Below are positions 3,001 to 51,922 of a stretch of DNA of 64,000 nucleotides, one piece after another (within the stretch, counting starts at the first letter, position 1; each line of letters begins with the position of its first letter). The notes under the pieces were generated by a model. That model was not told where the DNA came from. It searched no databases and saw only the letters and a list, made by a program, of their open reading frames with translations. The translations under genes were made by a program, and so were the position numbers. The DNA is from Antedon mediterranea (Eukaryota; Animalia; Echinodermata). The stretch is from assembly GCF_964355755.1 (NCBI RefSeq), contig NC_092672.1, forward strand, positions 31,378,437-31,442,436, in the 5' to 3' direction.

Positions 3001-5925
3001 CGAGCAACAGAGTTTTTTCTCTAGTAGTAGTAACCTATCACTTGAATTCCTAAGCTCTTTGTAAAGTTACAGCAAGAACATTGTTTGAGAGTTGTTGATC
3101 CATTAAAAGTAGATTAGCAAAAAGATAAAAGCTTCAGAGAGCGTGGTTAAATGATACAATAACTGAGGGCTTTGCAGTGCAGGTAAACGATGCTGTAATA
3201 ACAACACTGCACTCCGTTCTAACAAGAGTCCGAGTCGGGTGTAGGAGGCTTACAGCCGTCCAGGTAATAACAGAGTCAATTACATGCATGTGACTTCACA
3301 TGTTGTGTGAACACGCGTGTTTTGGAGCACTAGTGACCCCAGCTGTTCTGAGGTCATTCCTTACCCCTCAAGTAAAATAAGGAGAACATCTGGATATATA
3401 CAGATGTTTTAAAGAATTGATTGCAATTTGAAACCAGGTGCATTTGTTTCATAATTTGTTTACTACTTAATAAAATACACAGGTTGAACACCTCCATGGG
3501 TTGAACACCTCCAACAAAACAAACATTTTAATATTAAAATAAACTAATTTAGTAAAAAAGTACAACGCAAGAAAACTATTTCCTAGTCAGAAAAATGTTT
3601 GGAAAATTAGTTTTGTTAAATGAATATATTATAAATCAAATATGAATGTTTAGTTTTGAAATATAAAGTTGGTATGAGTGATTTACGAGTGTGTAAACGT
3701 GCACCAATGCAATGAATTCAGTAAAAATATCATATTTGCGTCATGAGGGGCAAAATTATGAAAACATAAATACCAGTGATGGTTTGAAACCTACATCATG
3801 AAAGTTATCAAAACTATTTTGCGATGAGATTATAATTACAATTAATTTTTTTTATTTCAATGGACATTAATAATAATAATCAAATATTTTTATAGCGCCA
3901 ATTCCAAAAAGATGATCTAAGAAATTTCGAAATAAATTGGGTTAAATTTACAAAAGGAGGGAATTTGTTCAAAAAAGAACTGATTGTTTGTGCATTGAAA
4001 ATTGAATATTTTTGACAGACTATTAATATTTATATGTTACTGCTCCTCTGTTACAACAAATCCTAGATCCGCCTATGAAACTAGAATTCAGATGGTAATG
4101 TTACTATGGATTTACATAAACCAACAGTTTTAATTTGCATATAAAATCTTGTGGAAAACGTGGGTTTAATTACACGTACCAATGATACCCACTCTTACCA
4201 TTCTCCAATATTCCTCATCATCAGAGTTCTCAGATGAGCGAGAGTGTCTTATTAGCGGATAAGTCCAATCAAATCAGAAAATGCCAAGAATTCAAACTAA
4301 GCAAACTATGACAGATGGCTGTTAATAATCATCTTTCATCTCAATCATCATCACATGAAATTGAAACACTTCCTCATATACAACTGTAAACACATTCTCT
4401 CCTTGCCACAATTCAATTAAAAGATCTATGAACTGGAGTATTGACCACTATTTGAAATGTAAAACCCTTCCTTTGGACATTCCTATTCAGTGGTCAACCC
4501 TATTAAGGGGACACTATCTTACAGGGCGAACCTTTTTCTAAAGTGAGCTTTAAAAAAACCTTTTGTTGGAAAACGAACCCTTCTGTAAAAATCCTAGCTA
4601 ATGGTATGAATTTAAACACAAACAAAATCAAAAAAATTAAAGTTTGATCAATTCCTTCCTTTGGTAAAATAAAAGAGAGAGTCTCTCATAAAACAATAAC
4701 TTAAAATATATTGTGGCACCAGCCTGAAGGGTTATTAAAACAAAAGAGCTAAAATTATCTACCCGTATTTTAAATATGTATGTGATTATTACAAACTTTA
4801 TGTATTTGAACTTCTATATAAAGTTCATAACGCCTACATTGTGTATGTCCGAGAAAGCAAACAAAAAGAACAGGCAGTACTGAGAGGATGGGAAGAGTGG
4901 ATGGTGCCGTCTCTTTCAATCTAATTTTTCTTCATTGCAGCGTTACAAAAAAAGTTTTTTTTCTTTCTTTTTTTGATGATTGAACATTTCTTGGCGATTG
5001 AGCATTTAAAAAACCACCAAAAAAATTTGAAAATTAGAAAACAATACACTAGAGTGCATATATAAAGTTTACCTTAATTTTTCAGAGAAAACTATTCTAT
5101 TTTCTTAAACCACCATGATTCTTAATAAAAATTGGATTGATTTGTTTTTTTCTATATCACCCTCTAATTTCAGTTTTTAACTTTTGGTTTATTATTCTAG
5201 TAAGAATAGATGTATTAGTCATTTGTCAATAACACAAATTTTACTACAAAAAAAAAACACTTTTGACTGAGCGACCCTGTTTTTCAACTTTTAAAGGCAA
5301 ATTTTATTGTCCTATGATCAAATTGAATGCAAGGTTATTGTTTTATATGTCAATGACCACATTAAGTTTTAATAATGGGTAATAATAAATATGCTTCCCT
5401 CAACTCAACTTCAAACATAAGTTTGTTTGCTCAAGTGTTTAAAAGCTTATGGTATACCAAAATAAATAATTTAACAATTAATTAAAACTCTTCACAAGGA
5501 TTTTAATCAGATTGCAATGTAAACACAGATCAAAACAATGCAATTAAGTGCCCTAAATTTAGTCACCTTCTATGAGGTTTTCTAAACATGATAGACTCTC
5601 AAAACTTAAAGTTGTTAAAGACTTAGTGGCTAATCCTGTGGAACTTCTGTGTTTCTAAATCTATGATACCTTCTGTCTAAACATCTACTTTCTTAAAATG
5701 TTTGACACTTTTGTAATCACAGAATAATGTAGTACACCATTTTAAACAAGTTGTACAGTAGTATTGGTTTAAAGAAACAAGTTTTTAGTAACAGGTATAA
5801 TGAAGGATGTAATTGTGTGAAGGTAGTAAGTAAAAGATGTCTATCCAGCCTTATTTGATAGCCTTTACTGTCCAGATACTTAATTATTAGGTTTACAGTT
5901 TAACTGTAGAAAACTCTTTCTTTAA

Positions 5926-6551
5926 AGCCCCCTTCCCTACGTTTTTTAGATCTAATTTAAGATCACAAACTATATTTAATGTAAAAATAATACTATATGA
6001 TCCTATTGCGATAACTTTTTTCGTCTTTAAACGGTTAAAAATGTGAAAAATAAGTCGATTCTAATAATTATAGCGGCCCGCTATAAATCCCAAAATGCAT
6101 TGTGCGCGGATTGATATTTTTGTTTTTCACCTGTAATTCGCCCACTTTTCGATCGATCGTGAGGCCAAAACAAATGGAAGACTCCTAACTTTTCAGCGAA
6201 AATACCGGGTTTTCCCCAATTTGTATCAACGGAGTCTGGCAAAAATAGAAAGACAATTAATGCAGCAACTATACAACGTCAGGCTAGGTATATAGCTAGC
6301 GTACGATGTTCGTACGTTACCGATGTTTACCAGCTAGGCCTACAAAACTAAGCCTAGCTAGGCTAGGCTAAGACCGTCCACGAGAGGTCGATCGCCGCGA
6401 GCTACTTAGGTAGTGCATTGTTTCTCACTTTTTTATCATAATTTACCATAAAACGTACATTTAAGACAAGGAATGACATGGTTTAATGTTTTTAAAGTGA
6501 TATATATGTATTATTTTCCAAAAAACGTCCAAAATTGCAGGGAAGGGGTCT
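5926..6551. mobile_element. Non-autonomous Kolobok-type element (626 bp)
   Basis: TTAA at 5922-5925 and 6552-6555; TIR AGCCCCCTTCCCT / AGGGAAGGGGTCT (1 mismatch in 13); AG..CT termini; CpG-rich interior with no ORF. Confidence 0.75.
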
Positions 6552-8329
6552 TTAAATATAATTGTTAAATTTAATCATTTTCTGTCTAAACTAACAACTA
6601 CCACTGTAAATGTACTTTTTCCAAAAAGACTATCATCAGTATTGAATATTTTGATTACAGTATCTCATTAGGAATCCGATGTAAACAAACAAACAAGTTG
6701 CTCGAAAAGAAAACAGTTTAGCTCTATGTATATAATCTGTAGGCCTACTATAGTCTATTCCATGGTGAATAACAAGCTTGCAAAGTGTCAATTAATTCCC
6801 TCTTTCCTCAACCACCTACACACATTCTTGCTAGCCTGGAAACTTCATATTTAAAACGCACATGAAACTTAACACCATGAGAATCTAATAAAACCCAAGA
6901 AACATTATTAATAACAGATAAAGATAAATCCCTATTTCTTACCATGATTCCTGTACATTTTTGTTTCCAGAATTTACCAAAATGGAAATCAGGGTTGTTT
7001 TTTAGCAGACTATAAACTTGGCAGCTAGGCTAAGCTTGCAGTGTTTATTCCAGGATGTAACATTCTCCTCTGAGCCTACTGTTGATGCCTAAACAGTTGC
7101 CCTAACATGACCCTGCCATATAAATCCTTTTACCAAGACAGCTGGCTTACACAGCTAATAACTGTATTAGGCTACAATCTACCACAAGCATAAATCCTTC
7201 ATAAACTACTATACTGTATAAAACAGCAATAAAATACCCTTAAATTTCCTCATTATGCATAAACGTTGAATGAAAAAAACAATAGGTTTACCAATTATGC
7301 ATATATTATTATAAATAGGTTGATTTTAGGCATTGTTAATATTTGTATATCTGAAGTTTTGTTTGTAGAATTTGAGACTACATAAGGATTTAAAGGGAGG
7401 TCACTGGAGACTGGATGTGTCTTGTAAAAGCACCTTACCAAGGTCACAATGAATAAGCCCCCTAATTGTGGTAATTCCATACAGGCTGGTAAATAAAAAA
7501 GAACTGAATTGACTGCTAAAACATCTGTTCACATTGTATTAGTACAATATATTATTGTATTGTATAATATAGTAATGTGATATGTTTACTGTGTAGATTT
7601 TAGTAATAAATATTTCTAAGCTAATAAGCCAATCATTTGATCAATCAATCAATAAACCATGTATTGGTCATCAATCAATTAATTAATATATACAATTATT
7701 TATTTATCGAATTAACTTGCTCATCAATTTATCAGTGTATTTGATTGACTGGTTAACGAAAGTTATTGAATCAAATGTACATTGATCAATATTAATCAAT
7801 ATGCTAATTACTGATCAATCAATCAAATCAAACATATGGATCAATCAATATGCCTGATTAGATATCAATCCAATCAAATTGTATTGATTAATCAATCAAT
7901 ATAAATTATTACTAATAAATCCAATTAAATTTATCAATCATTCATTATATATTTATCATTTAAATAAGCAATAAATGAATAAGAACATACCAGTAATTTT
8001 AAATTAATTACATCCTTTATTTGTAGTCAAAATTAACATTCATACTTTGATCCAAATCAGGGTCATATTATTTTAATGAGATCAAATCCAGATTGAAATT
8101 TAAGGTAGGTTGCAAGGATGGAATAAATTATTAATCAAAAACGAGTAAATTGAGACAGATAACATTGACACAATTATCCAATTTCATAATCCACATAAAC
8201 TCTGATGAATAGTACGGTATGGCAGCTATGTATTATAATTATGCATCCTTATTTTAATAAGTCACATGATATTGATAATGGACACTTATGAGGAAGTTTA
8301 TTTGTTCAAATTTAATTAATAGCCATACA

Positions 8330-9490
8330 CTAAGCACTATATACACTATGTACACTTGTTAGACACTATTACACTTGTCAGATGCACTATATATATTCTG
8401 TGCATTTGTCAGGTGTAATGTGTACACAGTATGTACTTCTATGTACACTTGTCGGCTGCATTACACTTGTCAGACGCACTATATACACTATGTACACTTG
8501 TCAGACGCACTATATACACTATGTACACTTGTCAGACGCACTATATACACTATGTACACTTGTCAGACGCACTATATACACTATGTACACTTGGATGCAT
8601 TACACTTGTCAGACGCACTATATACACTATGTACACTTGTCAGACGCACTATATACACTATGTACACTTGTCAGACGCACTATATACACTCAGTACACTT
8701 GTTGGATGTATTACATTTGTCAGATGCACTACATACACTTGAAGAACACACTGAATATACTACAGTATGTACACTTGGATGCATTACACTTGTAGACGCA
8801 CTATATACACTATGTACACTTGTCAGACGCACTATATACACTATGTACACTTGGATGCATTACACTTGTCAGACGCACTATATACACTATGTACACTTGT
8901 CAGACGCACTATATACACTATGTACACTTGTCAGACGCACTATATACACTATGTACACTTGGATGCATTACACTTGTCAGACGCACTATATACACTATGT
9001 ACACTTGTCAGACGCACTATATACACTATGTACACTTGTCAGACGCACTATATACACTCAGTACACTTGTTGGATGTATTACATTTGTCAGATGCACTAC
9101 ATACACTTGAAGAACACACTGAATATACTACAGTATGTACACTTGGATGCATTACACTTGTAGACGCACTATATACACTATGTACACTTGTCAGACGCAC
9201 TATATACACTATGTACACTTGTCAGACGCACTATATACACTATGTACACTTGTCAGACGCACTATATACACTATGTACACTGTGACTTGTCAGACGCACT
9301 ATATACACTATGTACACTTGTTGGATGTATTACATTTGTCATGCACTACATACACTTGAAGAATATGAACTTGAAGAATATAAACTGAATATACTATATA
9401 CACTTGGATGCATTACACTTGTCAGACGCACTATATACACTATGTACACTTGTCAGACGCACTATATACACTATGTACACTTTATACACA
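8330..9490. repeat. 31-bp minisatellite with 368-bp higher-order duplication
   Basis: Unit CACTTGTCAGACGCACTATATACACTATGTA; the variant block GAAGAACACACTGAATATACTACAG occurs at 8741 and 9109. Confidence 0.95.
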
Positions 9491-12400
9491 CTATAGCACA
9501 CTTTTTGGATATAGGTGATTATTATGTTATCTTTAAGAAAAACCTAGAAGCTAAGAACACCATATTGTTATAGAAAATACCTGCAAAAAATACATCAGCT
9601 CTACCTTGAATAAAATCCTCAATTAAACTATACAGTTAATCAGAATCAGAGAAAGCAATAATTATTAACATCCGGATATTTTCTGACAGGGTCACTCAAA
9701 ACATAATACTCATACTTAATTTATAAGTATTTAGTAGATCCTATCTAAAGACCACCTCTTTCTAGGACCACTCTATTGTTATATGCGCAATCTAGCTTTA
9801 ATATTTTAAAAAAAAATGATTTGTTTATATTGTACAGATTCTCAGAATCTATTAATTGAAGAGATTATAGAAGCTATTTCGATCGACATGGTAATTAATT
9901 CGACACTAAACACAGAAGAAACCATTTATTTTCTAGTTTTCTCAATAATTAATGGGTGTCTGATCTAGAAAATCAAATGCCATAAAGATTCACCAATAAC
10001 TCTTGTATAGATATTTAGTACATGGACCAACAGACAAGCAAACATGGTATAAATATTGGATGAAGTAATAAATAAATCTGAATCGGTGAAAAAAATGTAT
10101 TTAAATTTTGCTACAAGTTTTGTATCAGATATCTTGTACATGGACATAACAAGCAAACATGGTTGTGAGCATACAGTAGGAGGGAATAAATGAATCTGAA
10201 ACAGGGGAAAAATGTAATGAAATTGTGCTAAGAGTTTTGTATCAGATATCTTGTACATGGGCAGACAAGCAAACAGGGTTGTGAGCATATTGTAGGAGGG
10301 AATACATGTATGCGAGCATAACAACAGGGAAGCATCAGGACGTACTTCCTTCAAGCATGTCGTCAAACGTGGATTTTGATACACTTGATTCAACTCTGAT
10401 AAAACAATGCACTTTCGATCATGTTTCTACCAGCTCTTTAAACAATCAGCCTAGGCAAACCAAACACTAGATTACCATCGAAAGTAGAATATATTTAAAC
10501 GATTAAAGTACATAGTGATAGCAATATTTACAAAATAAAACATATTATCTTACCCTGAGCCATTTTGATTCCTAATATATATCAAATAATAAGCAAGACC
10601 ATAACAATTGCGAATGAAAAAAAAAACCACTTGTTTTACAATGCTCGAGAATTTGAACGGAATTGCAACAGGAAGAGAATTTCCTGCTTGAGGTTTCGAT
10701 TCTACTACAGGAAGAGAAGACAATCGGATATTCCAAATATGGGCGTAGGTAGGGCATTGGTAGAAAGAAGTGTGCAATACAAGGTGCATATAAAAAAAAA
10801 ATCATTGATTGTTATGTTTTTTTTTATTGATTCGAATTCTAGTATATTGCAAAAAAATTATATAATAAAATATTATGTAAATGAAAGATAAACATATTCT
10901 TGTATTATATTGATTTTTTAACAATTGGTTAACGTTTAAGTAGCAGATATAATGTATATTGATTCAGATATTATAACATTTTGTCTAATATGGTTTTGGT
11001 TGAATTTAAATTTACCGATTATTAAAAGGGGGATGAAAAAGGGGAGGATGAAAAAGGGGAGAGGGAAAAAGGGGAGAGGAAAGAGTCGCGGAGAAGGGGG
11101 GGTTGTGGTGGTGAGAATTAGGTGGGAAAAAGTGGGAGGCCAAAGAGAGAAAGAAAGGTCTTTTGGACATTTATTTTATTACTTATAATAAAATAAGTGT
11201 GAGTTTAATATAAAACATGTGAATCGACAGACCACTGAATAAATTCATATTCATTCCCATTTGCTGGTAGTAATAATTATTTATTTTTGAGAACTCCTAC
11301 TTTAAACGTATTTCTGTTAGGTTGTATTCCGATTACCATGGGAAAATTAAAAGCCAACCAAGTGTAACAATGGGGGTGGGGGCGAAGAAGAAAGGGTGAG
11401 AGCAAAGAGGAGAGGGTGGAGACGAAGAGGAGAGGGTGGGGGATTGGGGCTGATGGGTTTGGGGGTTCGATAAACATGGTGAAATGAAATGCTGCTGAAC
11501 TTATCTAATGTCTTATTTTTGCATTATAATTTTCAAATTAAAGAGGGGGTGGGGGTGGGGGCCCTTGGATGTGCCTAAGAATCATAATCATCGGTTTCTA
11601 GGAACATTATCAATATTATTCAGTTATGTTGAGTCATGTCTAACATATTGAGTCATGCCAAGTAATCTTTTACCACAAATGTAATTCCCATGATGATGAT
11701 TATGATCATTTAACAACATCTCAAAATCTACCATCCATTGTTCACATAGGAAATGAATATTACAATGAATTCAACATTTTTAAAACCAAATATACTGACA
11801 GTAGACCACCTAATAACTGGACATATTCCACACCCAAATAAAGTGTCCCCATAATAGAGGTGTCTCCAGAATAGCAGTTTGCCATAGTGTTAAAAGACAT
11901 ACATTGACAGTTCGTTTCACAGGAGAGTGTCCCTTAAATAGGGTGTCCAATGAATTAGACAGTCCCCTGAATAGGGGTGTCCCAAAAAGATGGATTCTGA
12001 TGTACTTACCAGAACCATTGGTAACCAGATGAAGACAAAATCTTCTTTTTATAGTTTCAATATATCTTACGACCACATTTTCAGTACACACTATAACAGT
12101 AAGATTAAATACTGTTGGGATTTCAACCAGTGTTCCGATACTAACAACCCAGCAAGACATCGATTATATTATGTTTTGAGACGACAGGGACCAAGCTGTG
12201 ACAGACAGTGTCTTGTTTCTAAACACGAAACACTAGATAACACCATTGACAGGAAAAGAACATGAAGCGGTGTACATTTTTTTGTATTAAATGCGTTTAC
12301 ATAACCAATCACTTACGGGATTATCAAATGTATTTGTGAATCATAATTGCCGACAGGGGCGGAAGTGGCTTCAAGTAGTATTGAACATATTCTAATAATG

Positions 12401-14497: not shown

Positions 14498-15157
14498 TTT
14501 GACAGTGTTAACAACAACGCAATCCCAACAATAAATAATACGTTTTTTACAATAATTAAAACATGTATGCTACAGTATCACTTGACTTATTGGGTTCTAA
14601 ATCCTGATTCAAATGATTTTATCAAAAGCTTCCGCTTACAATATATAGCTTTAAGGCCTGGAATGTAAACAACAAAATGTTAAGTTGTACAATTGTAGTT
14701 CAGTAGTTGATTGTTGTTTACTAATCCGTAAAGTAATTCAACATGAATACCCTAACACACCAATATATCCTGGTGACGAATTATATATAATATACTGGTG
14801 TTGTGAATAAATTTTACTTCGTCCGGAAATAATAAAAATAAAAATCTGAGCCATAGGTCACCATGTGCAAGAAGTATGACAGTTCAACAAACATATATTA
14901 CCACGAAATACACCTACTGTCAAAATGTCTACAACACCACAATGCAAAAGTAAATTGGCTTCCGTCCGTCCGGACAATTCAAATTTTCTCACTAATGGCC
15001 GAAAAATATCAGCTTAGCTCGTAAAAATGTCAAAATGAAATTGAACTGATACTGCATCTACCAGTGTATTTATCAGTAGTGACGCGTTGTCATTAAATTT
15101 AAGCACTGTACTTTATCAATGAGGTTAAAAGATTTCATAATTAATTAAAGTTTTTAA

Positions 15158-16196
15158 CACTTTGACTGCCAAAGGTTTTTCCAGTTAGAAACTGCCATCG
15201 CCAGCGTTTATAGCCCAATTCGATGTTTTTATTAAAGCTGATTGAAACTATGTATGTGATCTGATTTACATGTAATTTAGACAAAAATAATCATAAAGAT
15301 TTTAGCTTTACAATGTTACCAAGAACGATTTTCAAATCGCAATATGTAAATCGTAATAGTAAAGTGAAAGTAACCCACTTTTTGAGTTTTTCGTAGTTTT
15401 GCGCAAGAAAGTCGAGATATTCGCGATTTTGTGCAAGACATCACAATATGAAAATATCGCCCGGTGAGATCAACAAACAACGAAAAAGTTACTTACACGG
15501 CACCGGTAGGCCTATAAAAACAAGTTTTCACTACCGAAAAATGTATTACATTTTATAAATCATAAATCTTACATCAATGTTTCGCCAAAATCCACATAGT
15601 AAAGACACCAGGCCTAGTTAACTAGGCCTAAAGTTGGTCCGGAACCGTTTTACGACTAGGCCTAGGCTATAGCCTAATACTACTAGCCTAGCTAGTAAAC
15701 TGATGATAATATTCATACCATTTCTAAACAAGTTTGTTGCGTGAAACACGGCCACTTACAGTGAAACACCAAAACAATTAGGGTATACATACAATAATAA
15801 AATTAAAGACTTCATATTGAAAATTCATCCATTATTTTTTATTCAGATAACAAACAAACATGCCAATCCACATAAACCTTGTAATGCTTCGGCGGCATAG
15901 CTAGCGCGCGACCGATACACAATGCGCCAAACCATCGCTGTACGCGCTACTGTGATGCGCGGTGTATGTTATTTCGACAGGCACCATTTTGACAATCGTT
16001 CGTAACCAGATTAGTTACTTTCAAAAAGTAAAATAATCACGGTCCAGACCGAATATAGTGTCCATATTTATAGTATATACCAATAATTAACCTATCTACC
16101 GGATTTCGTAAAAAAACGCAAACGAAGATCTTCGTGTTTGGCAGTCAAGCGTTGTGTTTCCAAAAACGAAGATCTTCGTGTTTGGCAGTCAAAGTG
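15158..16196. mobile_element. Non-autonomous piggyBac-like element (1039 bp)
   Basis: TTAA at 15154-15157 and 16197-16200; perfect 16-bp TIR CACTTTGACTGCCAAA; subterminal 29-bp direct repeat (16120-16148, 16164-16192) containing the palindrome ACGAAGATCTTCGT. Confidence 0.85.
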
Positions 16197-18334
16197 TTAA
16201 TATTTAAATATCATGCTCAGATATAATCCCCCTATCATACGTGATAATTCTATTGGACTTGTTTCTAATCTTATTCTTTATGCTCAAATTATAATTGCAC
16301 TCCATCATATATACTTTTGACTGAAATTTCAGATTGAAACTTCAGATTGAAACTTCAGATTGATATTTCAGATTGAAATTTTAGTTTTGCACTGCCTGAT
16401 AATGACAACCTACTAAATGATGAAATGTTTAATACAAAATATTAATTTATTTCATCATAAAGTCTCAGTAGATCCTGTATAACTGCAATGCAATATAATG
16501 TTTATTATAAAACATATTGAAAAGGTACGTCTATGGTAAGCTAATATTTTAACACCTAACACAACTTTTAAAAAAATGAAATAATTATCCAACATAAATG
16601 AATGCAATATAAAACTTACAGTGTTAAATTCAAGACCATCTATGTAATCAATAATATGAAACATGTCGTATTTCGAAGGCAACAGTTTGATGAAGCAAGC
16701 TCAACGCACACTTATCATAACCGTATTCCACGCGACTTAAATTATAACCTCTCATTGACTTATCTACGGCAACTAATATCAATTCCGTCGTTGTGATAAT
16801 TTCCAGCAAAACCATGAACATATAAATGATGACATCAACGATATTAATAAGGTTGCGAATCTACAGACTCGTGGCCTCTCTAAGAGGAGGTCAAACATAT
16901 TCTCATTGCGCTTGATGGGCCTATCGAGTCATATAAATCATCGTCACTTTTCAGAGTTATAATCTTTGATTATGTAAAACACTGTAGGGTTAATACAAAG
17001 ATAGAAACTATGCAACTACGAACCCTCATATTTCGGATGCGAAATCTGAAAAATGAATAATTTGAAAGTTTAAGGCCACGTTCTAGGCAAAATAGCAGAC
17101 ACGTGAAGACTTCAGCACTTGGGGCCTCTCTCTTGCTTACGGAGAATGTATACATGAATGATTTTTTATACTAGCTTCAAATTGAACCAATATTTATAAC
17201 TTTGGTTATACAAGTATTATTTAAACATTTTTTTTAAAGTTGTGGTAGAGGAGAGTTTTGGTAACCAATGTCCACTTTTTTTTCTTTTAAAACTCTAGCA
17301 TAGTTCTATTTTGTTATATACAGTGAACTCTCTCTCTCTCTTTCTCAAAGCCCAACAGGTCCCTAAATCCTCTTCAGCATAAAAAACACATTCTGAATTT
17401 CCAGAAACCAGACATATTTTGCCAGCCCAGGTATAATTGGGACAGTTGTTGACTGTATTTTTCTTTTCATAAAATTATTATAAGTGTTTATACTCAGAAA
17501 AAGATGTGTCATTCTATTGTGACAATGAACAATATAAACATGTGACAATGACATTGTTACTAATATGTGACAAGTTAATTTTAATGCATTCAACACAAAG
17601 GAATTGGATGGAATACCATCCTTATCGCAGTAAATACCAAAAATCGTTGAAATAGACAATTGTGGGAAGTGAGTATTGTTACATGACATCATCAGTCCAT
17701 TCAAAGAAAATCTTGGAAAAATTAATGGTATATTATTCATAATTTGTTTCTTCTAAACCCACATTGTTAACAAGAAATTATTATTTGACGCTAATTTTAA
17801 ATGAATGAAACTATACGACACTTCACAGAACAATCATTGTGCCTAGTCTCAGACTGGATATCCTCTAGAGGGCAGTATTCAAAAGTGCCACTGTCTAATC
17901 TTCCCATCATGAATAGAACTATTGATAATATTAAACACATCTCTTCAATCATTTCCGTCGAGTGAATTATTTTGTAATTCATGCTGGTGTCTGTCTTCGG
18001 TAAACATATTTTCGAAAATGAAACATTTTTCGCTTACAAGTGTCATAGCAATTTAGCGTGAAGTGAATTACATGAATTTTTTTCTCTACATTTTGTATTT
18101 CAATGGAATTTGACCTGCATTTTATAAATCGTATGTTCATTTATTGTTGAAGCTTATATAATTGTGAAGAACAGCCAAAATTTATACAAAAAAATAATAA
18201 TAAACGGATTTGATAACAATTGAAAGAAAATGTAATCATATTATAAAGTCCTGCACATTTAAAAAGGCATAGAAAAAATAGCCAGGTGATAACTGAATGT
18301 TAATTAATTAATTTTGAAACAAAGATTAAGAAAT

Positions 18335-19844: not shown

Positions 19845-20242
19845 CTACAACTCCACTAATATCGGAGTTTACAGCATGGAAGTATACATTCCATACATGT
19901 AAATGTAGTGCGTGCGAAGACAGCTCATTATCTTTATCATAAGATATTATGTAGAAGAAATAAATGACAAAACCTAAAAAATGATGAAACAGTTCTTTAT
20001 CCAATTTCATTTTAATTGGAAAACTAAATTCATCTTTTTTAAAGTACTTAAAGATCATGGAACATGGTATTTGAAGTTTTTGCAAAATAGTAGTATTATA
20101 GTTGTTTCCCCTGATGGACATTAAACAAACAATAAATTAAACGTTTTCAGGACATAATTAAAGTGTTTTCTGCTATTTCGCGCAACTGCTTTCAGTTCAC
20201 GTTTATTCGGGTTTTTTCGGCCTTTTCCGGTAACCACTGATA

Positions 20243-20260
20243 GTGACGTCATAAGATGAA
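20243..20260 (+). promoter_or_regulatory. Left subterminal 18-bp motif containing a CRE palindrome (TGACGTCA), upstream of the transposase
   Basis: GTGACGTCATAAGATGAA, 191 bp from the left end and about 90 bp before the ATG; perfect inverted partner at 26028-26045. Confidence 0.75.
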
Positions 20261-20349
20261 GAAAACTTTTTCGCGCCTGTGTGTGTACAAACTATTGCTT
20301 GGCCCGTGTCGTGTGTTCATGTTGACAATCTTGCATCTATCTCATAAAA

Positions 20350-23300
20350 ATGCCGAAACGGTGTGTTTTCTTTGGGTGTAGTAACATTTCTAAAGATGAA
20401 ATCAGTTTGCATTTCTTTCCTAAAGACAAATCCTTTTTTAAAAAGTGGGAAAAGGTTGTAGCAACCAAGAGAAAAAACTGGAAAGCCAGCCCGTATTCTT
20501 GTGTATGCTCTGAACACTTCAGCGAAGACCAGTTTGTGGAATATAATTCCGTCAAGGCCCAGCTTGGTTTTGCAAACAGGTTTGTAATAACTTACTATTC
20601 TAATAAGTAATATTAAAATATTAATAATATAATAATAATAATAATAATACTACAGTAACTAGGCGACTAGGCCTAGTAGTAGTAGCCCTACTTTAGGCCT
20701 AGTCCTAGTAAGTAGTAGTAAGCCTGGGTACTGTGTAGGCTTTTTCTGGTTACGGTCCTAGCTAGGCTAGCCTAAAGGCCCGGGGGCCTAGCCTAGGTTA
20801 GTTGAGGCGTCCGTGGGGTATGAAGAACAAACAATTGTGCACTGACACCAATTGTTCACTTTGCCTTTGTTTAATAATTAGGATAGGGGATAGACCTTGG
20901 CCTAGGCTAGTTATTATTTTTGAGACGTTGTGATTTGTTATTGAATCAATCTTTTTGATGGCATTGAAAATCTAAATCACGTATGGGACGATGACGATTT
21001 GAAGCAGTGTATCACCCGATCAAAAATAATTACTACTAGGCTAGTATTAGATGTTCCCAAATATGTTGGAAATTAAGAAGTTTGTGATCAAGATCAAATG
21101 CATAGGCCTATTTTCTTTTTACAGAAAAAAAAAATTAAAGCCTGATGCCATTCCCTTTCATCGTGTATGTTGTGAAGAACTGGCCAATGACAAACAGAAA
21201 CTAGTCCCAGGCCGTTCTGCATACCAAAAAAGGGAAAGTGAAAGAGAGTCTGTTCACAACAAAAGTGAAATTGAAAGGGTGAGTGATTACCTAATGATCT
21301 GCAGCATAAATGACTTGTAAAATAATGTTGTGTACTCTAACTTCTAATTCAGAATATACAGCAGTATGACCGTTATTATTAATGGTGATTTTGGTTCTTG
21401 TTTTACTATATTCCAGATTTTGAAAGAAAATAAGGAAAATGTTTTTGAAAGTGAAAGTGAAGCTATGGTCAATGAAGATGGAAGTAGAAGATCTTGTGGT
21501 ATAAATACCACAAGTGAAAAAAAATTCCATAAAGCTACAACTGTAAAGCCAGTTACAAGGACTGTTAAGATACAGACTTCATACAAAGGCCCCAGTAAAT
21601 GCAAGTACCTTGTCAATTAATGTTTGACACTAGGTGGTGTTGCTAATAGCTTTAAATGTGTACATTTATTTTTATTTATTTTTTCAGCTGTCCAGTGTGT
21701 ACCTCTCTGTTGTTCTAGAGGTACTCAATGTGAACTGTTGCTTCCATTTGCAACATCCAGTCCTATTGCAAGTGAAGATGAAGATGAAGGTATGGAGGTA
21801 GATGACAATGATGATTATTATATACCAAGTGACACATCAAATTCAAGTATTGAATTGGATGAAGGTGAAAGTGATGAGTAAGTACAAACGCCATGTTACA
21901 GTTTCATTTTGATGCAATCAATTACATGTTAGTTATTTTACATTCTGACCTTGTAAACCTTTTTATATTATTTCAGTTCTAATAACTTTGAGTACGAATT
22001 AAACCACGAGGTAAAATATGTTGTGTTCCGCTCAATGCTGCTTAGCCTATTTACCCTATGTCAACTGTGTGGCAAAAAAGGTGCTAAAGCAGCAACAACT
22101 TGTATAGGGACATTAATAATAATAAATCAGACTTGTCGAGCATGTGATGGAAGTTTCCAGTGGAAAAGCCAGCCATACATCGGAGCAATTCCAGCTGGAA
22201 ATCTTTTATTGAGTGCTGCCATTTTGTTCTCTGGTGCTTTGCCAAGTAAGGCATTGAAATTGTTACGCTTTTGGGGTGTGACAATATATGAAAGACACAC
22301 CTTCTTCAGACACCAAAACAAATTTTTAATACCTGCTGTTAACAATTTATGGGACAGAAAGCAAACAGATTTGCTTAGAGTGGCTCGACAGTCCGAAGTG
22401 ACATTAGGTGGTGATGCACGATGTGACAGCATGGGGCATTCGGCAAAATATGGAAGCTATACTTTATTAGACCTGGATAGAAAAAAGATCTTGGCTATGG
22501 AGCTTGTTCAGGTAAGATTGTTGCTGCATGATTTCTTTGAAAATGTTGGAATTTTATTAAATTGATTTTTTTGAAATGATTACAGTAGTTACTGTGATTA
22601 ACACTATTAGAATTTTTTTTTTAATTATTTCATAGAGTAACGAAACTAATGGAAGCTACCATATGGAACTAGAAGGATTGAAGCGGTGTCTGAATGTGCT
22701 TTGGAAAAGTAATGTTGCTATCGGAACTTTGGTAACGGACCGGCATGCTCAAATTCAGAAGTGGCTAAGAGACAACTGTAGTCAAATAACGCATTACTTT
22801 GATATCTGGCATGTGGCTAAAGGTAGGTTGGTTTACAAACATAATAATCTTGATTTCTTGTACTCAAATACTACAAATCTTTATTTTGAATACTTGCAAC
22901 ACATTATATTTTATTATTTACATTTTTAGGGTTAAAAAAGAAACTTGTTGCTCTTGAGAAGAGGAAAGGGTGTGAACAAGTTAACAAATGGCGCCGAAGC
23001 ATAATTAATCATCTCTATTGGAGTGTTGTTACAAGTAACGGAAATGGGGACCTAGCTCTAGCAAAGTGGGATTCAATAACAAATCACATTGTGGATATTC
23101 ATTCCGGTCATAGTGACTTGTTTCCGGCTTGCATTCATGGACCAGCTCAAAAAAAAAATTTTTTTACACCAGGTAAACCAATTATTATTTAACTTTTTGG
23201 GGCAAGTTTCTTCTCCAATATGTCCGATTTTTTGACTAATTATTTTTTGGTTTCTAGGGACAGAATGTAACGAAAAAGTAGCAGATATCCTGCAGAACAA

Positions 23301-24011
23301 GTACCTCATGAAAGATGTAGTGAAACTGTCTCCCTTAGGACAAACATATGGCGTCGAAGGTTTCCACAATCTTGTGAACCATTTTGCACCCAAGATGTTC
23401 CACTTTGGTTATTCTGGGATGAAAAGCAGGTATGTGCCTAGTTTATAATCAAATGTTCATTATTTATTTGTGTAGTGCTGTAATATTAGTATTTTCTAGG
23501 CCACATGATTCATGTTTGTATTGTTTTTGTCTTATAGACTTCTGCTTGCAGTTTTTCATTACAATGAGAATTCAGATCGTATTCAGGCAAGGACAAAAGA
23601 TGGTGATCTCCAGTATGCCATTGCATTCCCAAAAGCAAAACAAGGTGGCCATACAGTCAAAAAAGTAATGACAGAATGTACATTTGGTAAGTCTATTTTA
23701 GTTACAATAAGCAACTAATTCTGGACATGGTGATTGATTTCTATTATGAATATGCTTTATAATGAAGACCTGGACTGCTCTGTGGTGAGAGATTATGTTC
23801 TGTTTATTTATTTTTTGTAGGGTATGTTGATGAACTGATTACAGAGGTAATGTCTGTTGTCGATGGTACTGCTGAATGCATTGACTTTGTTGACGCTCCC
23901 CCTCCCCTCTGTGCAAGTTTCGAACATCCAGACAAAACAGTAGCCATTGAAAGCCTGTTTACAAGGTTTCCAGAGACAGACTCAACATTAGATACATACA
24001 CATCTAAGTAA
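20350..24011 (+). CDS. Kolobok transposase, N-terminal THAP zinc finger + DDE core; 10 exons, about 742-744 aa
   Basis: Manual splice model: 20350-20579, 21125-21278, 21417-21600 (GC donor; or 21594 with GT donor), 21688-21877, 21977-22511, 22636-22822, 22930-23172, 23258-23429, 23538-23686, 23821-24011. All phases are compatible and there is no internal stop. THAP C2CH motif MPKRCVFFGC..FP..W..CSEHF..LKPDAIP; CxxC..CxxC; core motifs GGDARCDSMGHSAKYGSY, LVTDRH, HYFDIWH, QTYGVEGFH..FAPK, LAVFHYNEN. Confidence 0.9.
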
Positions 24012-24514
24012 TGCGTTATTTGACTACAGTTGTCTCTTAGCCACTTCTGAATTTGAGCATGCCGGTCCGTTACCAAAGTTCCGATAGCAACATTACTTTT
24101 CCAAAGCACATTCAGACACAGCTTCAATCCTTCTAGTTCCATACGTTAGTTTCCATTAGTTTTGTGACTCTACGAAATAATATCAGATTGTAAATCTAAT
24201 ATGTTAATCACAGTAACTACTGTAATCATTCCAAAAAACTCAATTGAAGTCACATCGTGCATCACCACCTAATGTCACATCAGACTGTCAAGCCACTCTA
24301 AGCAAATCTGTTTGCTTTCTGTCCCATAAATTGTTAACAGACGGTATTAACAATTTTTTTGTTTTGAAGAAGGTGTGTCTTTCATATGTTGTCACACCCC
24401 AAAAGCTGGAATTGATCCGATGTATGGCTGGCTTTTCCACAACATTGGATACATACACATCTAAGTAATGAGTTATTTGACTACAGTTGTCTCTAAGCCA
24501 CTTTTGAATTTGAG
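23983..24514 (+). repeat. 75-bp direct repeat (23983-24057 and 24440-24514) bracketing the antisense cassette
   Basis: caacatt(a/g)gatacatacacatctaagtaatg(c/a)gttatttgactacagttgtctct(t/a)agccactt(c/t)tgaatttgag; 4 mismatches; copies 457 bp apart. Confidence 0.93.
24006..24440 (-). repeat. Inverted, internally deleted copy of transposase exon 5 / intron 5 / exon 6 in the transposase 3' UTR
   Basis: 24006-24245 is the reverse complement of about 22560-22799; 24249-24405 of 22268-22427; 24404-24440 of 22160-22196. The minus ORF 23804..24142 reproduces MELEGLK(L/R)CLNVLWKSNVAIGTLVTDRHAQIQKWLRDNCSQITHY. Confidence 0.95.
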
Positions 24515-24670
24515 ACAACGCTTGTTACACATCAAAGTTTGGGTAATAGAATCAGGGAATCCCAAGGAGAAATTCATACAATACAAAGGGCCTTACACAA
24601 TGCTATGGAAATTCAAATCTAAATATACTGAAAATACCTGTATTTTTCATTTTAGGATTGTTGTACTGTT

Positions 24671-24686
24671 AATAAATGTTAATAAA
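24671..24686 (+). terminator. Tandem AATAAA polyadenylation signals, probably for the transposase mRNA
   Basis: aataaatgttaataaa followed by T/GT-rich sequence; first AATAAA I could find after the stop at 24011. Confidence 0.6.
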
Positions 24687-24829
24687 TTTGTATTGCATTA
24701 AAATATATATTGAATTTGTTGATTTTTATGGTTGATGGTAAACCAAACAGATGCTATTCAAATCTCAATTGACCTTTTGGTTGTTCTGAAAAGAACAGTT
24801 TGTTTTGGGTATAGTGCAGTATTGCAGAT

Positions 24830-25947
24830 TTACATATTGAAACCTTCAAAATAAAAATTGTCCTCCATTCCAGGGGGTGGAAAATGGGCTCTTATACATG
24901 CCACTGCACATGAGGGCAGAACAACTCTCAAGTTTCTTCCAAGAAAGCCCCAACACCATCTCGCCAGTTGCCTGTAAGCCACATGCCTTCTACGTTTGTG
25001 CTCTGGGCCATCAAATGCAGCATCATATTGTTGCCGGTATTGAAGCCATGCTATTTCAAGTACATGCACATTTAAGCATGCTGCGACAAATCCAGGATGG
25101 TTGGTGATGCATGTATATCGCTCAGCATTGTACATTGTTTCCCCTTCATCCAGTCTACATTCCATTGATGGGATTTCCTGGCAGCACTTGCACTCACGAT
25201 ATGTTTGTTGTATCTGGCAATGGCCACACTTGCACCTTGAAAACAGTTTCAATACAATAATATATAGGCCTAATGACGTGTCCCCACCTGAACTATTATA
25301 CTTGTATTATATATATTTGTTATTAATTAATAACAAGCTGTACCTTACGTCATGAGCATTAATTATATTTATTATTAATTATGCACAGAGTTTACTACAA
25401 TTTAGCCTAGCTTTTTTCATACCACTGCATGCACTGATGGGTTAAGAACGAATTAATCACCTACTACTAGGCCTAGCTAGAGCCTAGGCCTACTACTACT
25501 AGCCTAGGCCTAGTCCCTAGTACTACTAGCCTAGCACCTTTCACTTTAGTAAATCGACACAAAAGCAACTTCAGTTTTACTAATTATTTTATTGCGTTTA
25601 AAAACACGATAATAATGTGCTATATAACTGACTGTAACTAACCATTCCAAAGTTTGGGTCCGTAATTGACCTAGGCCTAGGGCCATGTTGGTCTGGTCAA
25701 TTTCGGGACCCTCAATTTCCCCACGACGTCGTTCTTCGCCGACTTCGCGTTGGTCGGCCTCACCTTCAGAATCGGTGAGATCGGGCTTATACATATAGGG
25801 TTGAATCGCCCTATTATTACATTCAATTTCATGCGTATCGATAACGTCATCTCCTTCATCTTCATCGATTTCGAATTCACAATGGATCGTTTCCTCTTCT
25901 AAAACAGAATCAGAACTGTCGAGATCGTACACAATACGTGTTGACAT
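24830..25947 (-). CDS. KolX: KolX accessory protein, acidic N-terminus + Cys-rich P2X7-ballast-like domain; 2 exons, 236 aa
   Basis: Exon 1 25947-25643 (TG|gttagt) and exon 2 25235-24830 (ttttcaag|G) join to give W-CKCGHC. Motifs IQPYMYKP, ECKCCQE, CITNHPGF..CLN..VL, RHVAYRQLARWCWG.LG...RVVLPSCAV..IR.HFP match the P2X7 C-terminal/KolX family from memory. Convergent with the transposase inside the TIRs. Confidence 0.88.
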
Positions 25948-26027
25948 CTTGCAGTTATTTTTTTATACACAGTTTGTGCACTAAATGCGTCGCGACACCA
26001 GGGGCGCCAGAGTAGTAGTACAGTGTG

Positions 26028-26045
26028 TTCATCTTATGACGTCAC
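26028..26045 (-). promoter_or_regulatory. Right subterminal 18-bp motif containing a CRE palindrome, upstream of KolX
   Basis: TTCATCTTATGACGTCAC, 191 bp from the right end and about 80 bp before the KolX ATG. Confidence 0.75.
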
Positions 26046-26803
26046 GATTTATCGCATTGGATTTCCTGCTTCCAAATTCGACTTCGGAAATATAAACTCC
26101 GATGTATGTAAATCATAAAAAAATCATAATTTACGCTTATAAAATTTATTTTACCAAAACGTACTAATAAAATCAACATATTCAGACCCAAATCAGCCAA
26201 AAAACGTTATACATCAAATACCATGTTCCATGATCTTTAATAATGTACACGTGGAATCGTTCATGCGTTATAAATGTTTGCACTTTACATTTAAGGTCAA
26301 CGACAAGGTCAAATTAAAGACCAGTGAAAACAACAATGAAAGGACTCATTCTTATGTATATATTTTCAACATTTGTAAATAGAATAGACTGTATGTTTTC
26401 ATTCTTTCTTTACTCCATGCTCATACTAATTGAAATAATATGGAATAAAAATGAATTTTTTAAACTGTTTACAGAAGCTAGCATACACAAGTCAATGCCA
26501 AGGTCAGATAAAAGATTTTAAAAGCTTATTAGCACAGAAACAATGTTTTCATTGTCATTTTGATTGCTAATTACAAATACAGATGACTGTACTTAGAGAG
26601 TAGAGTTGAATGCAGAGCCCTGCAACTCAACTCTTGCTCTAAAAACCACAGACTTTGTGTTTTTGCTGGTATAAGACAGTATAAGATTATACAATTTGCT
26701 GTCCGGGTATTGATTGGCAAGGCGTATTTATTTATTTCAACAGGAGGCTGATCTAGAAAAAAGGGGGTACATAACATTCATAATATATAGAGTAGAAAAC
26801 ATA

Positions 26804-47125: not shown

Positions 47126-49399
47126 TGTCAAATGTTATTGATGATACATTAGATGACATGGTATTCCTACTTTACAACTCAACAAATTGTAATTAATCAT
47201 AAAATAATTCAAATGCATGTACATCATCTAAGCGTTCCTTTCTCTCCGATCAATATCTTCAAAACATAAAGTTTCAAACGTACATGACTCATCAACCAAA
47301 CAGTCAGACAGGTATTTATGTTGCTATGGTTGCAAAAGATGCAAATTCGAACCAATACATTAGAGGTAAATTACAAACTGCAATTACTAAACCGGACTGG
47401 CGACATGTTGTCTAAATGACGCTACGACAAACAAGGCGATATAGGTATCCTTTAAATTAAAAACATCAATTGATAAACTTTCTCTAATTATTAATAACTT
47501 TTTGAACCAATACATGTCAAATACTAATAAACAAATTATGAACGGATAATCTGTAATTTTAGGTCTCAATTACGCATAGGCCTATAACTAAATAAATTAA
47601 ACTCCTTACTATTGATTACTCATATTCTAAAGAGGTATTATAATACTAAACTGTATTTTTTGTCTTAAAGGGACTTTAAGACAAGGTACAACCTATAAAG
47701 ATCCCTCATCATTTTTTATTTTACTTTGATTGGTTGATATTGGGTTTCTCAAAAAATTGGTATTGCTGTAAAAGCCTATTAAGAGCGATACTATGGACTC
47801 ACCAAAGTGTCAAGAACAAGACATAAAATGTGCATTTTTATCAGTAAATATTTTAGAAGGCATTCACTTTTTTCTCTCTTACATATTTTCTTTATTAATC
47901 TTTAAAGATATAACATCGACAAAAGCATTTGACCAAAAATTCGAAAAAAAAAAAGATTTACTTATAAATTAAAAATTATTTAATTTATAGCAAAAAAAAG
48001 TCAAGTCTTCTTTCATAAATATGAAATTAGATAGAGCCTAAGTAGTATAAAATTCCAATAACAGAATCTACCAAGTATGTACATTTTTGCAACATTTGCG
48101 TTCCATACCTATGAATAAATCATTAGGTTTGTGACCTATAAACGAACGCATAAGTAATTAAGACCTTGAAATAATGTCATTAACTTATTGTTAAATCAAG
48201 TTCACCTGAAAATTCATTAATTCTAAAGCGCCAAAACATTCGCTATTCGCTATTAAGTCGAATTTCAATATATATTACAGATGGGATCTCAGAACTCTTA
48301 TGATAAAATCTGATATATCACTATAAAATATGGAACTCATCTTCTAGACAAATGATTCACCACATTTTGAGATCTGCAATATTTTATTAAAAATATTAAT
48401 ATAAAATGTACAGAAATAATACAATATTAAAGTGTATTTTATGATTTTTCAAACAGAGTTCATCTTTTGATATTTAATTTTTGTAAAATAATAATGAGAT
48501 GAATTTAAATCTTAATCTCACATTTAATTAGTTATATTTTACGGGCAAAATAGAAAAAAACTTCAAATCGCCCATCCTGTGATATAATGGAAAATATTAT
48601 TTAAATCTTGAAACTGAGAACAAGATGAGGAAGATGAAATCTGTGAGAAGGGAAAAAGATACCCCAACCAAGATTCAAACCCAAAATCTTCTGCTTGATA
48701 TGCAGACCCTACCATAAGACCACTAGATAAAAAACCCTAATGTAGTATGTTTACAAATTGCCAATAATGAACAATACTGAATTTAGTCAATTATAAGCCT
48801 ATATTTTGAAACCAATTTATATAGAAAATGCACAAAATATTTTCTAAACAAACAGTTTTTGGGTGTATAAATTGTTTTGTTTTGAGAAAAAAAATTGACA
48901 GCTAACAAGACTTGTACCGAGAACTTTGGAATCGGTAGTTAAAGATTATGACAATCCTCATCCCTAATTTTGTCATGTATGAAATATTACAAATTTTATA
49001 AACTATTCACTTATATTTGAACTTATAACAAGAGACACTATTAAAAATAAGTAGCCGCAGAAACATATGTAATTTAAAAAGTCAGTGTACATAGAACACA
49101 GAAAACAATATTTTTATGAGATGATGATGAAAAATATAATATTAAATATTAATATGAGGGTACATGGTTCAACCTTTAGTGGAACAGGAGACAACTCTAG
49201 GACAAAGACAATGCTGGATGGCCTAGTAAGGACTGCTCTCATTTATTGCATTGTGCTAAGTGCTATAAAGAAATAGTGTCTAGGGTTGGTTAGCAAAGTG
49301 TTTAGGATATATGTTTTAATGGTACATAGTATTTAGGGTGTTGGTATAGTGTTTAGGCTTGGTTGTAATGGTGGAAAATAGCCTTTATGATATGTGTGT

Positions 49400-50675
49400 A
49401 AATGGTCATAATGGTGCATATAGTGTTTAGGGCGTCAATACATGTTTAGGCTTTGTGGTAATGGTGCACATAGGTATGCATAAAGTGTTTAGAATTGGTT
49501 ATAATGGTGCATATAGTGTTTAAGGTGTCCATACATGTTTAGGCTTTGTGGTAATGGTGCACATAGGAATGCATAAAGTGTTTAGAATTGGTTATAATGG
49601 TGCATATAGTGTTTAGGGCGTCAATACATGTTTAGGCTTTGTGGTAATGGTGCACATAGGTATGCATAAAGTGTTTAGAATTGGTTATAATGGTGCATAT
49701 AGTGTTTAGGGCGTCAATACATGTTTAGGCTTTGTGGTAATGGTGCACATAGGTATGCATAAAGTGTTTAGAATTGGTTATAATGGTGCATAATAGTGTT
49801 TAGGGCGTCAATACATGTTTAGGCTTTGTGGTAATGGTGCACATAGGTATGCATAAAGTGTTTAGAATTGGTTATAAATGGTGCATAATAGTGTTTAGGG
49901 CGTCAATACATGTTTAGGCTTTGTGGTAATGGTGCACATAGGTATGCATAAAGTGTTTAGAATTGGTTATAAATGGTGCATAATAGTGTTTAGGGCGTCA
50001 ATACATGTTTAGGCTTTGTGGTAATGGTGCACATAGGTATGCATAAAGTGTTTAGAATTGGTTATAAATGGTGCATAATAGTGTTTAGGGCGTCAATACA
50101 TGTTTAGGCTTTGTGGTAATGGTGCACATAGGTATGCATAAAGTGTTTAGAATTGGTTATAAATGGTGCATAATAGTGTTTAGGGCGTCAATACATGTTT
50201 ATGCTTTGTGGTAATGGTGCACATAGGTATGCATAAAGTGTTTAGAATTGGTTATAAATGGTGCATAATAGTGTTTAGGGCGTCAATACATGTTTAGGCT
50301 TTGTGGTAATGGTGCACATAGGTATGCATAAAGTGTTTAGAATTGGTTATAAATGGTGCATAATAGTGTTTAAGGTGTCAATAGCTGTTTATGCTTTGTG
50401 GTAATGGTGCACATAGGTATGCATAAAGTGTTTAGAATTGGTTATAAATGGTGCATAATAGTGTTTAGGGCGTCAATACATGTTTAGGCTTTGTGGTAAT
50501 GGTGCACATAGGTATGCATAAAGTGTTTAGAATTGGTTATAAATGGTGCATAATAGTGTTTAGGGCGTCAATACATGTTTAGGCTTTGTGGTAATGGTGC
50601 ACATAGGTATGCATAAAGTGTTTAGAATTGGTTATAAATGGTGCATAATAGTGTTTAAGGTGTCAATAGCTGTTT
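49400..50675. repeat. 93-95-bp tandem repeat, about 13 copies
   Basis: TAGGGCGTC markers at 49614, 49707, 49801, 49896, 49991 and onward; internal TGTTTAG and AATGGTGCA subrepeats. Confidence 0.95.
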
Positions 50676-51922
50676 ATTGGGTTAGTTTCCCCTAATAAGG
50701 ATTGCTTTTTACAATCAGGTTTCTATTATTGATTTCTTTATTAATTTCTTTAATTTCAGTTCATACTAATACTACTCACTTTAGAGACCATGGCAGCATT
50801 ATTTTACTGCAGTTACTGCAGCAACTACATTTTGCTTCAACATGTTTATGTAATTTTTCAAGCTTCTGTTGGTAATCTATCTATTATCTACTGCAGTGAA
50901 TCCCTCATAAATTCTACACTGAAACAAACTAAAATCAACCATTATTAGGCTAAAAATATATATTTACTGCAGTAACTGCAGCAGAATAACTTTGATGTGA
51001 TTCTTTATTATTTAAGACTATTGATCTCACATTTATATTTTATTTATCATCGTTTTTTAAATACACATTTATTACTATTTCAATTATTTATTATTTTTAT
51101 AATTATGGTTTTAAAAATATTAAGAACATTGTAATAATTTATTTTTACTTTATTTTTATTATTTTACTTTAGATGTAGACCATATGATGACCTTTATATA
51201 ATGTTTCATAAAAATAAAACATACACATGATCAAAAACATTAATGGTTTGGCTCATATAATGTTACAATATGACGACAACACTCCTACTCAAATAATAAT
51301 AATAAAGAAAATCACAGAACGGGAATATTATTATGCGAGTGTATGTTTCGCAATAGGAAAACAGATTTTTTTTTTTTAATCATATTGTAAAATGTTAATA
51401 TATTATATTTGTATGTATACAAGTATCAAGTAATATTATACAGATATTGACTGTTTAGCTATGTAATATATCAAGTTATCAAGTAATATAATAACTTTTC
51501 TGACTAATAATAATATATGTTTTGTTTAGAAGAAAAACAAACTGTAGTTTTGTATTATAACATAATGGAAAATTGTAATATCAAGGAATAGACATTAACT
51601 ACTGACCGTAGTAATATATGTTCTGCTATAGAATAGAAAAACATATTTTATTTTATGTTTGTACAATATATAATAAAAATTGTAATATTATACATTTACT
51701 TTTATTAAGTATTATTGTTAAGAAATATAATACATGTAGTACATGGTTAAAGAAAGTAAATGAATGAAAACAAAAATTGAACATCAAAAATATAATATAA
51801 ATCTAACATTATTTACTATTATCTGACTATTATCTTTTCAAGACATCTTCCAGAGAGAACTGTCCATGTCTGCATCGTCTACCACATGCAAATATTGTCC
51901 CGTATTTAGAAATTGTACATAC

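Follow-up and report, generated by a model that had tools for sequence, protein, structure and literature searches.

Antisense copies of transposase coding sequence behind the stop codon of an intact Kolobok transposon in Antedon mediterranea: a putative fold-back brake

The stretch of DNA under study (the window) is 64,000 bp long and comes from the feather star Antedon mediterranea (assembly GCF_964355755.1, contig NC_092672.1, positions 31,378,437 to 31,442,436). Judged by its sequence features, the segment at 20052–26236 is an intact Kol0 Kolobok transposon. Kol0 elements (type Kolobok-1_XT) display a TTAA target site duplication, 5′-RR…YY-3′ ends, a DDE transposase with a DxxH motif and a second gene, KolX, with a P2X7 ballast domain, as described in the main text of PMC9587614. 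The window element is alike in all of these and adds antisense arms of its own coding sequence (CDS) after the stop codon. TTAA is found at 20048–20051 and 26237–26240, and the empty-site joint 20047>26237 retains one copy. The left terminal inverted repeat (20052–20077, plus strand) starts with AG and the right one (26211–26236, minus strand) ends with CT at 26235–26236; with TTAA included, the left end matches 26211–26240 at 29/30 positions. The earlier assessment that open reading frame, inverted repeats and target site duplication are intact thus stands, the frame being open over 744 amino acids. A 21-nt motif with TGACGTCA at 20240–20260 is mirrored at 26028–26048 (inverted pair I19, 95%), ∼190 nt inside each end and upstream of each gene, and is a candidate for a promoter role.

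The transposase gene (20350–24011, plus strand) is modelled with 10 exons, at 20350–20579, 21125–21278, 21417–21600, 21688–21877, 21977–22511, 22636–22822, 22930–23172, 23258–23429, 23538–23686 and 23821–24011, and encodes 744 amino acids with a THAP domain (PF05485, E 4.5e-12) and a DDE domain. The frame is open across all 10 exons with GT-AG introns and one GC-AG intron; this is intron 3 (window 21601), where the frame is open only with the GC donor. The motifs GGDARCD, VTDRH, DIWH and EGFH lie in one frame, with D399, D466, DIWH at 487–490 and E608. The D, D and D-x-W-H residues, the last of these being the C/DxxH motif after the second Asp, are invariant across 20 homologues. The catalytic roles given to these residues are putative and in part follow PMC9587614. 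Exon 5 matches a protein named Antedon mediterranea at 100% identity; the crinoid Anneissia provides the following match, at 74%. A public model, P0049, has exon 1, the core and the C-terminus in common with the window model and differs in how exons 2–3 are modelled. The convergent KolX gene (24830–25947, minus strand) has two predicted coding exons, ∼25947–25630 and 25237–24830, the boundary of exon 1 being approximate, and encodes the P2RX7_C domain (PF20478, E 1.4e-9).

Other repeats are present in the window. An element of ∼1 kb at 15154–16200 has TTAA ends, a 20-nt perfect terminal inverted repeat and an internal 13-nt tandem repeat, and is probably a further MITE belonging to the Kolobok or piggyBac type. 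Tandem repeats comprise a 95-bp satellite (13.5 copies, 97%) at 49295–50676 and a complex 9/31/108-bp array at 8334–9495.

The end of the transposase gene runs into a cassette of antisense copies whose source, by self-comparison, is the plus-strand region 22160–22803, comprising exon 5, the 3′ end of intron 5 and exon 6. The final transposase codons before the junction (23983–24001, plus strand) belong to direct repeat D2 and recur at 24440–24458 with a single difference, synonymous in the ORF frame. Arm 1 (24002–24248, minus strand) is antisense to 22803→22557, with 228 of 248 columns identical (E 8e-97 in a 64-kb self-BLAST) and a 114-nt perfect core at 24006–24119. It begins at the D of DIWH and supplies the last codons, TCT AAG TAA, with the stop at 24009–24011. 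Arm 2 (24249–24406, minus strand) is antisense to 22427→22267 and contains the first catalytic Asp (149/161 columns identical, E 2e-60 in the same comparison), and arm 3 (24404–24440, minus strand) is antisense to 22196→22160 (36/37, E 6e-10). A 3-nt microhomology, AGC, is found at the junction of arms 2 and 3. The arms differ from their source by 3–8%, with indels.

Three collinear inverted blocks that begin at the last codons and supply the TAA stop had been described in a sequence-only reading, and the self-comparison reproduces them, as it does the coverage of both predicted catalytic Asp motifs, GGDARCD (22407–22427) and VTDRH (22732–22746). The three blocks are not the full set, however. 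A 75-nt direct repeat, in which 23983–24057 recurs at 24440–24514 (71/75), adds arm 4 (24459–24514, minus strand), a second antisense copy, 56 nt long, of 22803→22748 that had been missed; it has 3 differences of its own, none of which would alter an amino acid in the CDS frame. Likewise, the description of the cassette as an antisense copy of catalytic exons holds for the exons but not as exons only, as the distal 79 nt of arm 1 derive from intron 5 (22557–22635). The template was therefore DNA or pre-mRNA, not spliced mRNA. An open frame continues after arm 4, behind a GAGACA repeat. The possibility that the cassette truncated a longer C-terminus was rejected, since 9 of 10 homologues compared besides P0001 end 0–14 residues from the matching RF/RY position; the protein P0003 is aberrant. 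Weak searches at the protein level, using the chimeric minus-strand frame and the C-terminal exon as queries, detected no carrier of the ORF-cassette junction beyond P0001.

For the transposase transcript, candidate poly(A) signals first occur at 24671–24686 (plus strand; AATAAA at 24671 and 24681). No AATAAA or ATTAAA is present on the plus strand between 23900 and 24671, which agrees with the earlier placement of the cassette upstream of the first AATAAA. That one transcript contains both arms is a prediction based on where the poly(A) signal lies. In a modelled spliced mRNA extending to the AATAAA at 24671, 358 pairs form between ORF and cassette, with a longest helix of 114 bp and a loop of 764 nt; the duplex of ∼360 bp closing a loop of ∼770 nt that had been estimated from the window is close to this predicted fold. 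The folding energy is −890 kcal/mol; shuffling the cassette 8 times gave −490 on average. Provided that the transcript reaches 24671, fold-back of the transposase mRNA onto its own CDS is thus likely on the model. One sequencing run (X5), guessed to be RNA, retains introns and says nothing on expression.

It is proposed that the arms of the intact element fold onto the CDS within the transposase mRNA and damp its expression in cis. This model-based proposal, which falls somewhat short of probable, is preferred because the arms lie mostly in the probable 3′ UTR of intact genes, because they face the transposase and not KolX, and because they stay matched to the CDS. Were it transcribed, a duplex of 358 bp would be unlikely to stay inert within the mRNA of an animal.

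A templated fold-back insertion is the likely origin of the arms, by analogy with break repair. A DNA end near the stop codon would have folded back, copied upstream sequence in reverse and skipped at microhomologies; the intron in arm 1, the collinear skips and the microhomology all point to such template switches. Arms may afterwards have been added, eroded and refreshed. Templated inverted insertions at breaks, as treated in part of PMC11724301, arise by fold-back and microhomology switching and yield short inverted copies and multi-piece insertions, including short templated inverted duplications in yeast. These copy the sequence beside the break, whereas the window templates lie 0.2–2 kb off and the copies persist in a mobile lineage. 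The intron and the AGC microhomology also suit a second reading, a serious possibility in its own right, in which the arms are neutral passengers. Here fold-back or template-switch repair drops inverted copies where an active element tolerates them, in the 3′ UTR and in introns. With comparable reserve, re-copying between arms would keep some of them matched to the CDS, and the hairpin would be untranscribed or without net effect. A short antisense copy of exon 7 (23063–23088) in intron 1 (20929–20954, minus strand; 26 nt, 88%, 19 nt perfect) is consistent with such passengers. Lying in an intron, it cannot pair in the spliced mRNA and so counts against a brake. It has no further match in the window, and a variant copy of the element has a 3-nt gap nearby, at 20927. 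The surroundings speak against frequent neutral deposition: over the 58 kb outside the element, 7 inverted pairs scoring at least 18 at 0.1–3 kb spacing were found, and these are 5 dispersed-repeat matches, 1 TTAA-ended terminal inverted repeat pair and 1 A-rich pair.

The mobility of the cassette was assessed from assembled sequencing runs, of which 4 of 5 were compared with the window, three from sample S1 (possibly the window's own source) and one from sample S2. The precise empty site (20047>26237) is present in all 4 runs and in both samples, so the insertion is polymorphic and recent. Contigs of the three S1 runs span the junction of ORF and arm 1 (22814–24035) and the inner and right cassette junctions (24311–25511 or 24311–25501); as far as contigs go, the joins noted in the window are therefore crossed. 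These contigs come in two versions. That of X1 is identical to the window, and those of X2 and X4 show 3 substitutions and 1–5 gaps per 1.2 kb, with the variant base at 21816 being the one encoded by P0001. TLDTYTSK closes both P0001 and P0049, which lie on contigs of 31.9 and 39.0 Mb; the C-terminus of the transposase is thus shared by a protein from another chromosome. Cassette and element move together. It had been cautioned that presence of the cassette in the window copy alone would point to a one-off rearrangement; the cassette is not so confined, since a second sequence version spans the junctions and P0049 shares the C-terminus TLDTYTSK. Element ends (20048–20264 and 25948–26240) are found at 10–25 times the interior depth, together with a joint 20264–25948, and probably stem from a non-autonomous derivative family that is abundant.

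In S2, the ORF is followed as far as 23991 by one contig of 729 nt; an equal-depth contig covers 24419, and bin depths account for 32 + 166 nt from about 24248. By this depth arithmetic, the S2 copy appears to have arms 2–3 and to lack arm 1. If so, arms are gained or lost as modules. The apparent lack of arm 1 counts against a brake. An assembly artefact behind the cassette is scarcely credible. Inverted repeats are prone to mis-joining and S1 may be the source of the window, but the arms are 3–8% off their source with indels, two contig versions span the junctions and the second sample has part of the cassette.

A further reading takes the cassette copies for a silenced sub-lineage that acts in trans by siRNA on the whole family. 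In maize, Mu killer is a partial inverted duplication of transposase sequence for which hairpin RNA and siRNA were proposed; this rearranged derivative acts in trans, and its transcription comes from a flanking gene (PMC3440606). Composite Ac/Ds insertions, also of maize, contain self-made inverted duplications that give dsRNA and repress the family, and are one-off alleles from alternative transposition at the termini (10.1101/2020.01.07.897926, in part). Inverted duplications thus silence in trans in both systems, and the long duplex of the window element spans conserved catalytic sequence. An inverted transposase duplication is shared with Mu killer. The window element is nevertheless no derivative without intact transposase, having a 744-amino-acid ORF, both ends intact and a locus that is polymorphic and not fixed. 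Among the 15 joints listed, none skips the cassette, and S1 contigs are unbranched across the ORF-cassette junction, with the reservation that contigs drop rare variants. A trans-acting killer of this kind is improbable, and it is equally improbable that such copies are moved by cassette-free partners or tolerated through a benefit to the host. The related suggestion of a host-retained killer allele is unlikely, as the locus is polymorphic for a precise insertion and the cassette is mobile with the element.

The age and matching of the arms can be read from their differences. Against the CDS, arms 1–3 show 17 exonic differences, comprising 13 missense-type, 2 stop-type and 2 synonymous changes, and 3 of the 17 keep a G-U pair (16% expected), so there is no G-U excess. 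The differences look like plain decay, which counts against a brake and is consistent with neutral passengers. Three of the 13 missense-type arm states match the Anneissia protein, a hint that the distal arms are older than some ORF changes. On the other side, the 114-nt perfect run adjoining the stop exceeds the expectation for even scatter (p 0.0046, exon columns). The two copies of the 75-nt repeat differ at 4 sites, in each case synonymously in the respective coding frame (p 0.001–0.004, post hoc), and arm 1 agrees with the present CDS at all three paired sites among them. The simplest reading of these sequences is that arm 4 is a snapshot of a sister or earlier state of the gene and that arm 1 was kept matched.

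Arms are also found in other Kolobok loci. A scan of metagenome contigs, with the best 80 of 520 relatives kept, yielded 58 loci in 22 clusters in which the core is followed by at least 400 nt. Antisense matches to the own core scoring at least 20 were found downstream in 3 of the 22 clusters; none was found in the sense-downstream, antisense-upstream and sense-upstream controls (each 0/22). Cross-lineage pairs gave no downstream antisense match at a score of at least 20 (0/462) and one at a score of at least 18. A pairing scan over 28 representatives, with an extra 400 nt of upstream sequence and 40 shuffles each, placed 7 of them above all 40 shuffles. The L021 arm was dropped from the count as a non-coding repeat, the L035 arm (score 17) was left out as borderline and the L023 match was dropped as a spurious span. 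L013 was left out of the pairing scan and dropped because a neighbouring second Kolobok transposase explains its match. At 3257–6606 of this locus, two transposases ∼64% identical stand tail to tail, 350 nt apart.

Solid arms are present in 5 of the 28 representatives (L033, L039, L040, L045 and L055), and 23 are without a solid arm. The five loci have open ORFs and arms of 20–47 nt after the stop that are 90–100% complementary to their own CDS and match no locus outside their own cluster. In whole-region folds, the main arms pair with their own CDS sites at all five loci. In L033 the arm is a mosaic over the first catalytic Asp motif, which is also covered in the window, and the arm pieces are collinear in L033, L039, L040 and L055. 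Arms directed against KolX are absent from 18 loci and from the window. An AATAAA at L039 7542 lies within the antisense arm, which might double as a poly(A) signal. Recurrence in other lineages, with each arm tracking its own CDS, bears out one side of the idea that the cassette may belong to the family at large, but the 23 of 28 loci without a solid arm count against a simple family-wide system, as do the decay of the distal window arms (2 would-be stops, indels, no G-U excess) and the intron-1 copy. Viral contigs yielded no relatives, and a self-BLAST of 5 loci from genome contigs, most of them without the C-terminal part, gave no arm. Kolobok transposases, several with apparent introns, were seen on contigs filed under bacterial genome bins (L081 and L085, also L082–L084), and these contigs are likely eukaryotic contamination of the bins.

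Several features of these loci count against a brake. The five arm-bearing loci form one 7-row clade of a quick tree, distant from the window element, which implies few independent origins; the arm label needs 4 changes on this tree, the window included, and L036 and L066 lie inside the clade with no arm. The outer arms of L033 (+437) and L055 (+607) are beyond the first AATAAA or ATTAAA, and the weak second arm of L045 is unpaired in the fold (0/27). In L009 the end of the ORF is duplicated in sense orientation ∼750 nt downstream (5902–5930 vs 6712–6747), the single match of the sense control. Together with the intron-1 copy, it suggests that local re-copying occurs regardless of use. The outer arms past a candidate poly(A) signal, the sense duplicate and the 23 loci without arms are all in keeping with neutral passengers. 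Less easily reconciled with them are the L055 arms, which are 94–97% islands within unalignable sequence; an ancient long duplication between the arms of L055 or of L033 was not detectable. The same assemblies hold arm-bearing and arm-free lineages (L054 with L007 and L061), so arms are not simply a host trait.

L039 and L040 provide a comparison of two sequences only. They are 79% identical over the CDS, and each has an arm ∼20 nt after the stop, directed against the same codons. In the 19-bp helix, the two CDSs differ at 6 of the 19 paired positions, and pairing is kept at each of the 6: both partners have changed in 4 pairs, a single partner in 2 (with gain or loss of a G-U pair), and no pair is broken. 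Pairing with the own CDS is at −34 to −36 kcal/mol vs about −15.5 with that of the other locus. Special synonymous conservation at a second L039/L040 target was rejected, as four longer identical runs occur elsewhere. Maintenance of short arms of 20–47 nt over a 21% divergence of the CDS, with both one-sided changes being G-U, argues against neutral passengers. Re-copying between inverted repeats can, on the other hand, produce covariation without function, which again counts against a brake. The helix bears also on the reading that pairing acts on the other strand or in DNA, through KolX read-through or single-stranded intermediates, for example by ending convergent transcription. Transposase and KolX do converge on the interval, and on the minus strand the repeat has the same complementarity. 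The one-sided changes, however, give G-U when read on the transposase strand and would give A-C on the opposite one, and a minus-strand duplex requires read-through over ∼2 kb of the transposase gene; such action is very unlikely.

By sequence, the arms are real, element-borne and recurrent in a second Kolobok clade, with signs that the match to the CDS is maintained; their function as a brake is putative. The cis fold-back brake barely leads over neutral passengers. In its proposed workings, stop-proximal arms would stay matched to the CDS through re-copying, selection for pairing, or both. The duplex, 358 bp in the window element and 20–47 bp in relatives, might slow translation, or be cut by Dicer or edited by ADAR, and the copy number of autonomous elements would be held low enough for the lineage to persist. 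Such a brake would be leaky, as the element moved recently; its recent insertion in spite of the cassette is also what neutral passengers would allow. A broader reading, which is doubtful at present, is that several Kolobok lineages evolved a self-renewing antisense brake, consisting of reverse CDS copies in the 3′ UTR that are kept matched as the CDS evolves. It is similarly doubtful that the fold-back duplex or its small RNAs hold down the activity of these elements, and that the feather-star element represents a long, still-accreting form of which arms of 20–47 nt are the pared-down end state.

Element-borne complementarity that limits transposase expression is familiar. In Caenorhabditis elegans, fold-back dsRNA of Tc1 arises from terminal inverted repeats that pair in read-through transcripts, and the antisense RNAs RNA-OUT of IS10 and art200 of IS200 block translation initiation at the 5′ end. 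The window element has such complementarity in common with these, but here a 3′ UTR is predicted to pair with the middle of the CDS. If transcribed, the arms would work like Mu killer or the Ac composites, yet the element is distinct from both because it is intact. It differs from Mu killer in that the duplication lies in the predicted 3′ UTR of an intact and recent insertion, and from the Ac/Ds composites in that internal pieces of CDS are involved, which the element inherits and which recur in other lineages. Neither "antisense" nor "hairpin" occurs in the main text of PMC9587614. No account of such arms in Kolobok was found in a literature search whose scope excluded most subscription journals, Repbase Reports and supplements.

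Hairpin silencers known from DNA transposons are defective derivatives, and they shut the family down. Users of an arm-bearing Kolobok transposase as a tool would do well to omit the native 3′ UTR. Self-restraint in animal transposons is a long-debated idea with few clean tests, and an intact mobile element maintaining antisense arms against itself would, if the brake is true, be direct evidence of evolved self-restraint at the RNA level. Even neutral arms would be a record of internal inverted copying that took place repeatedly within Kolobok elements.
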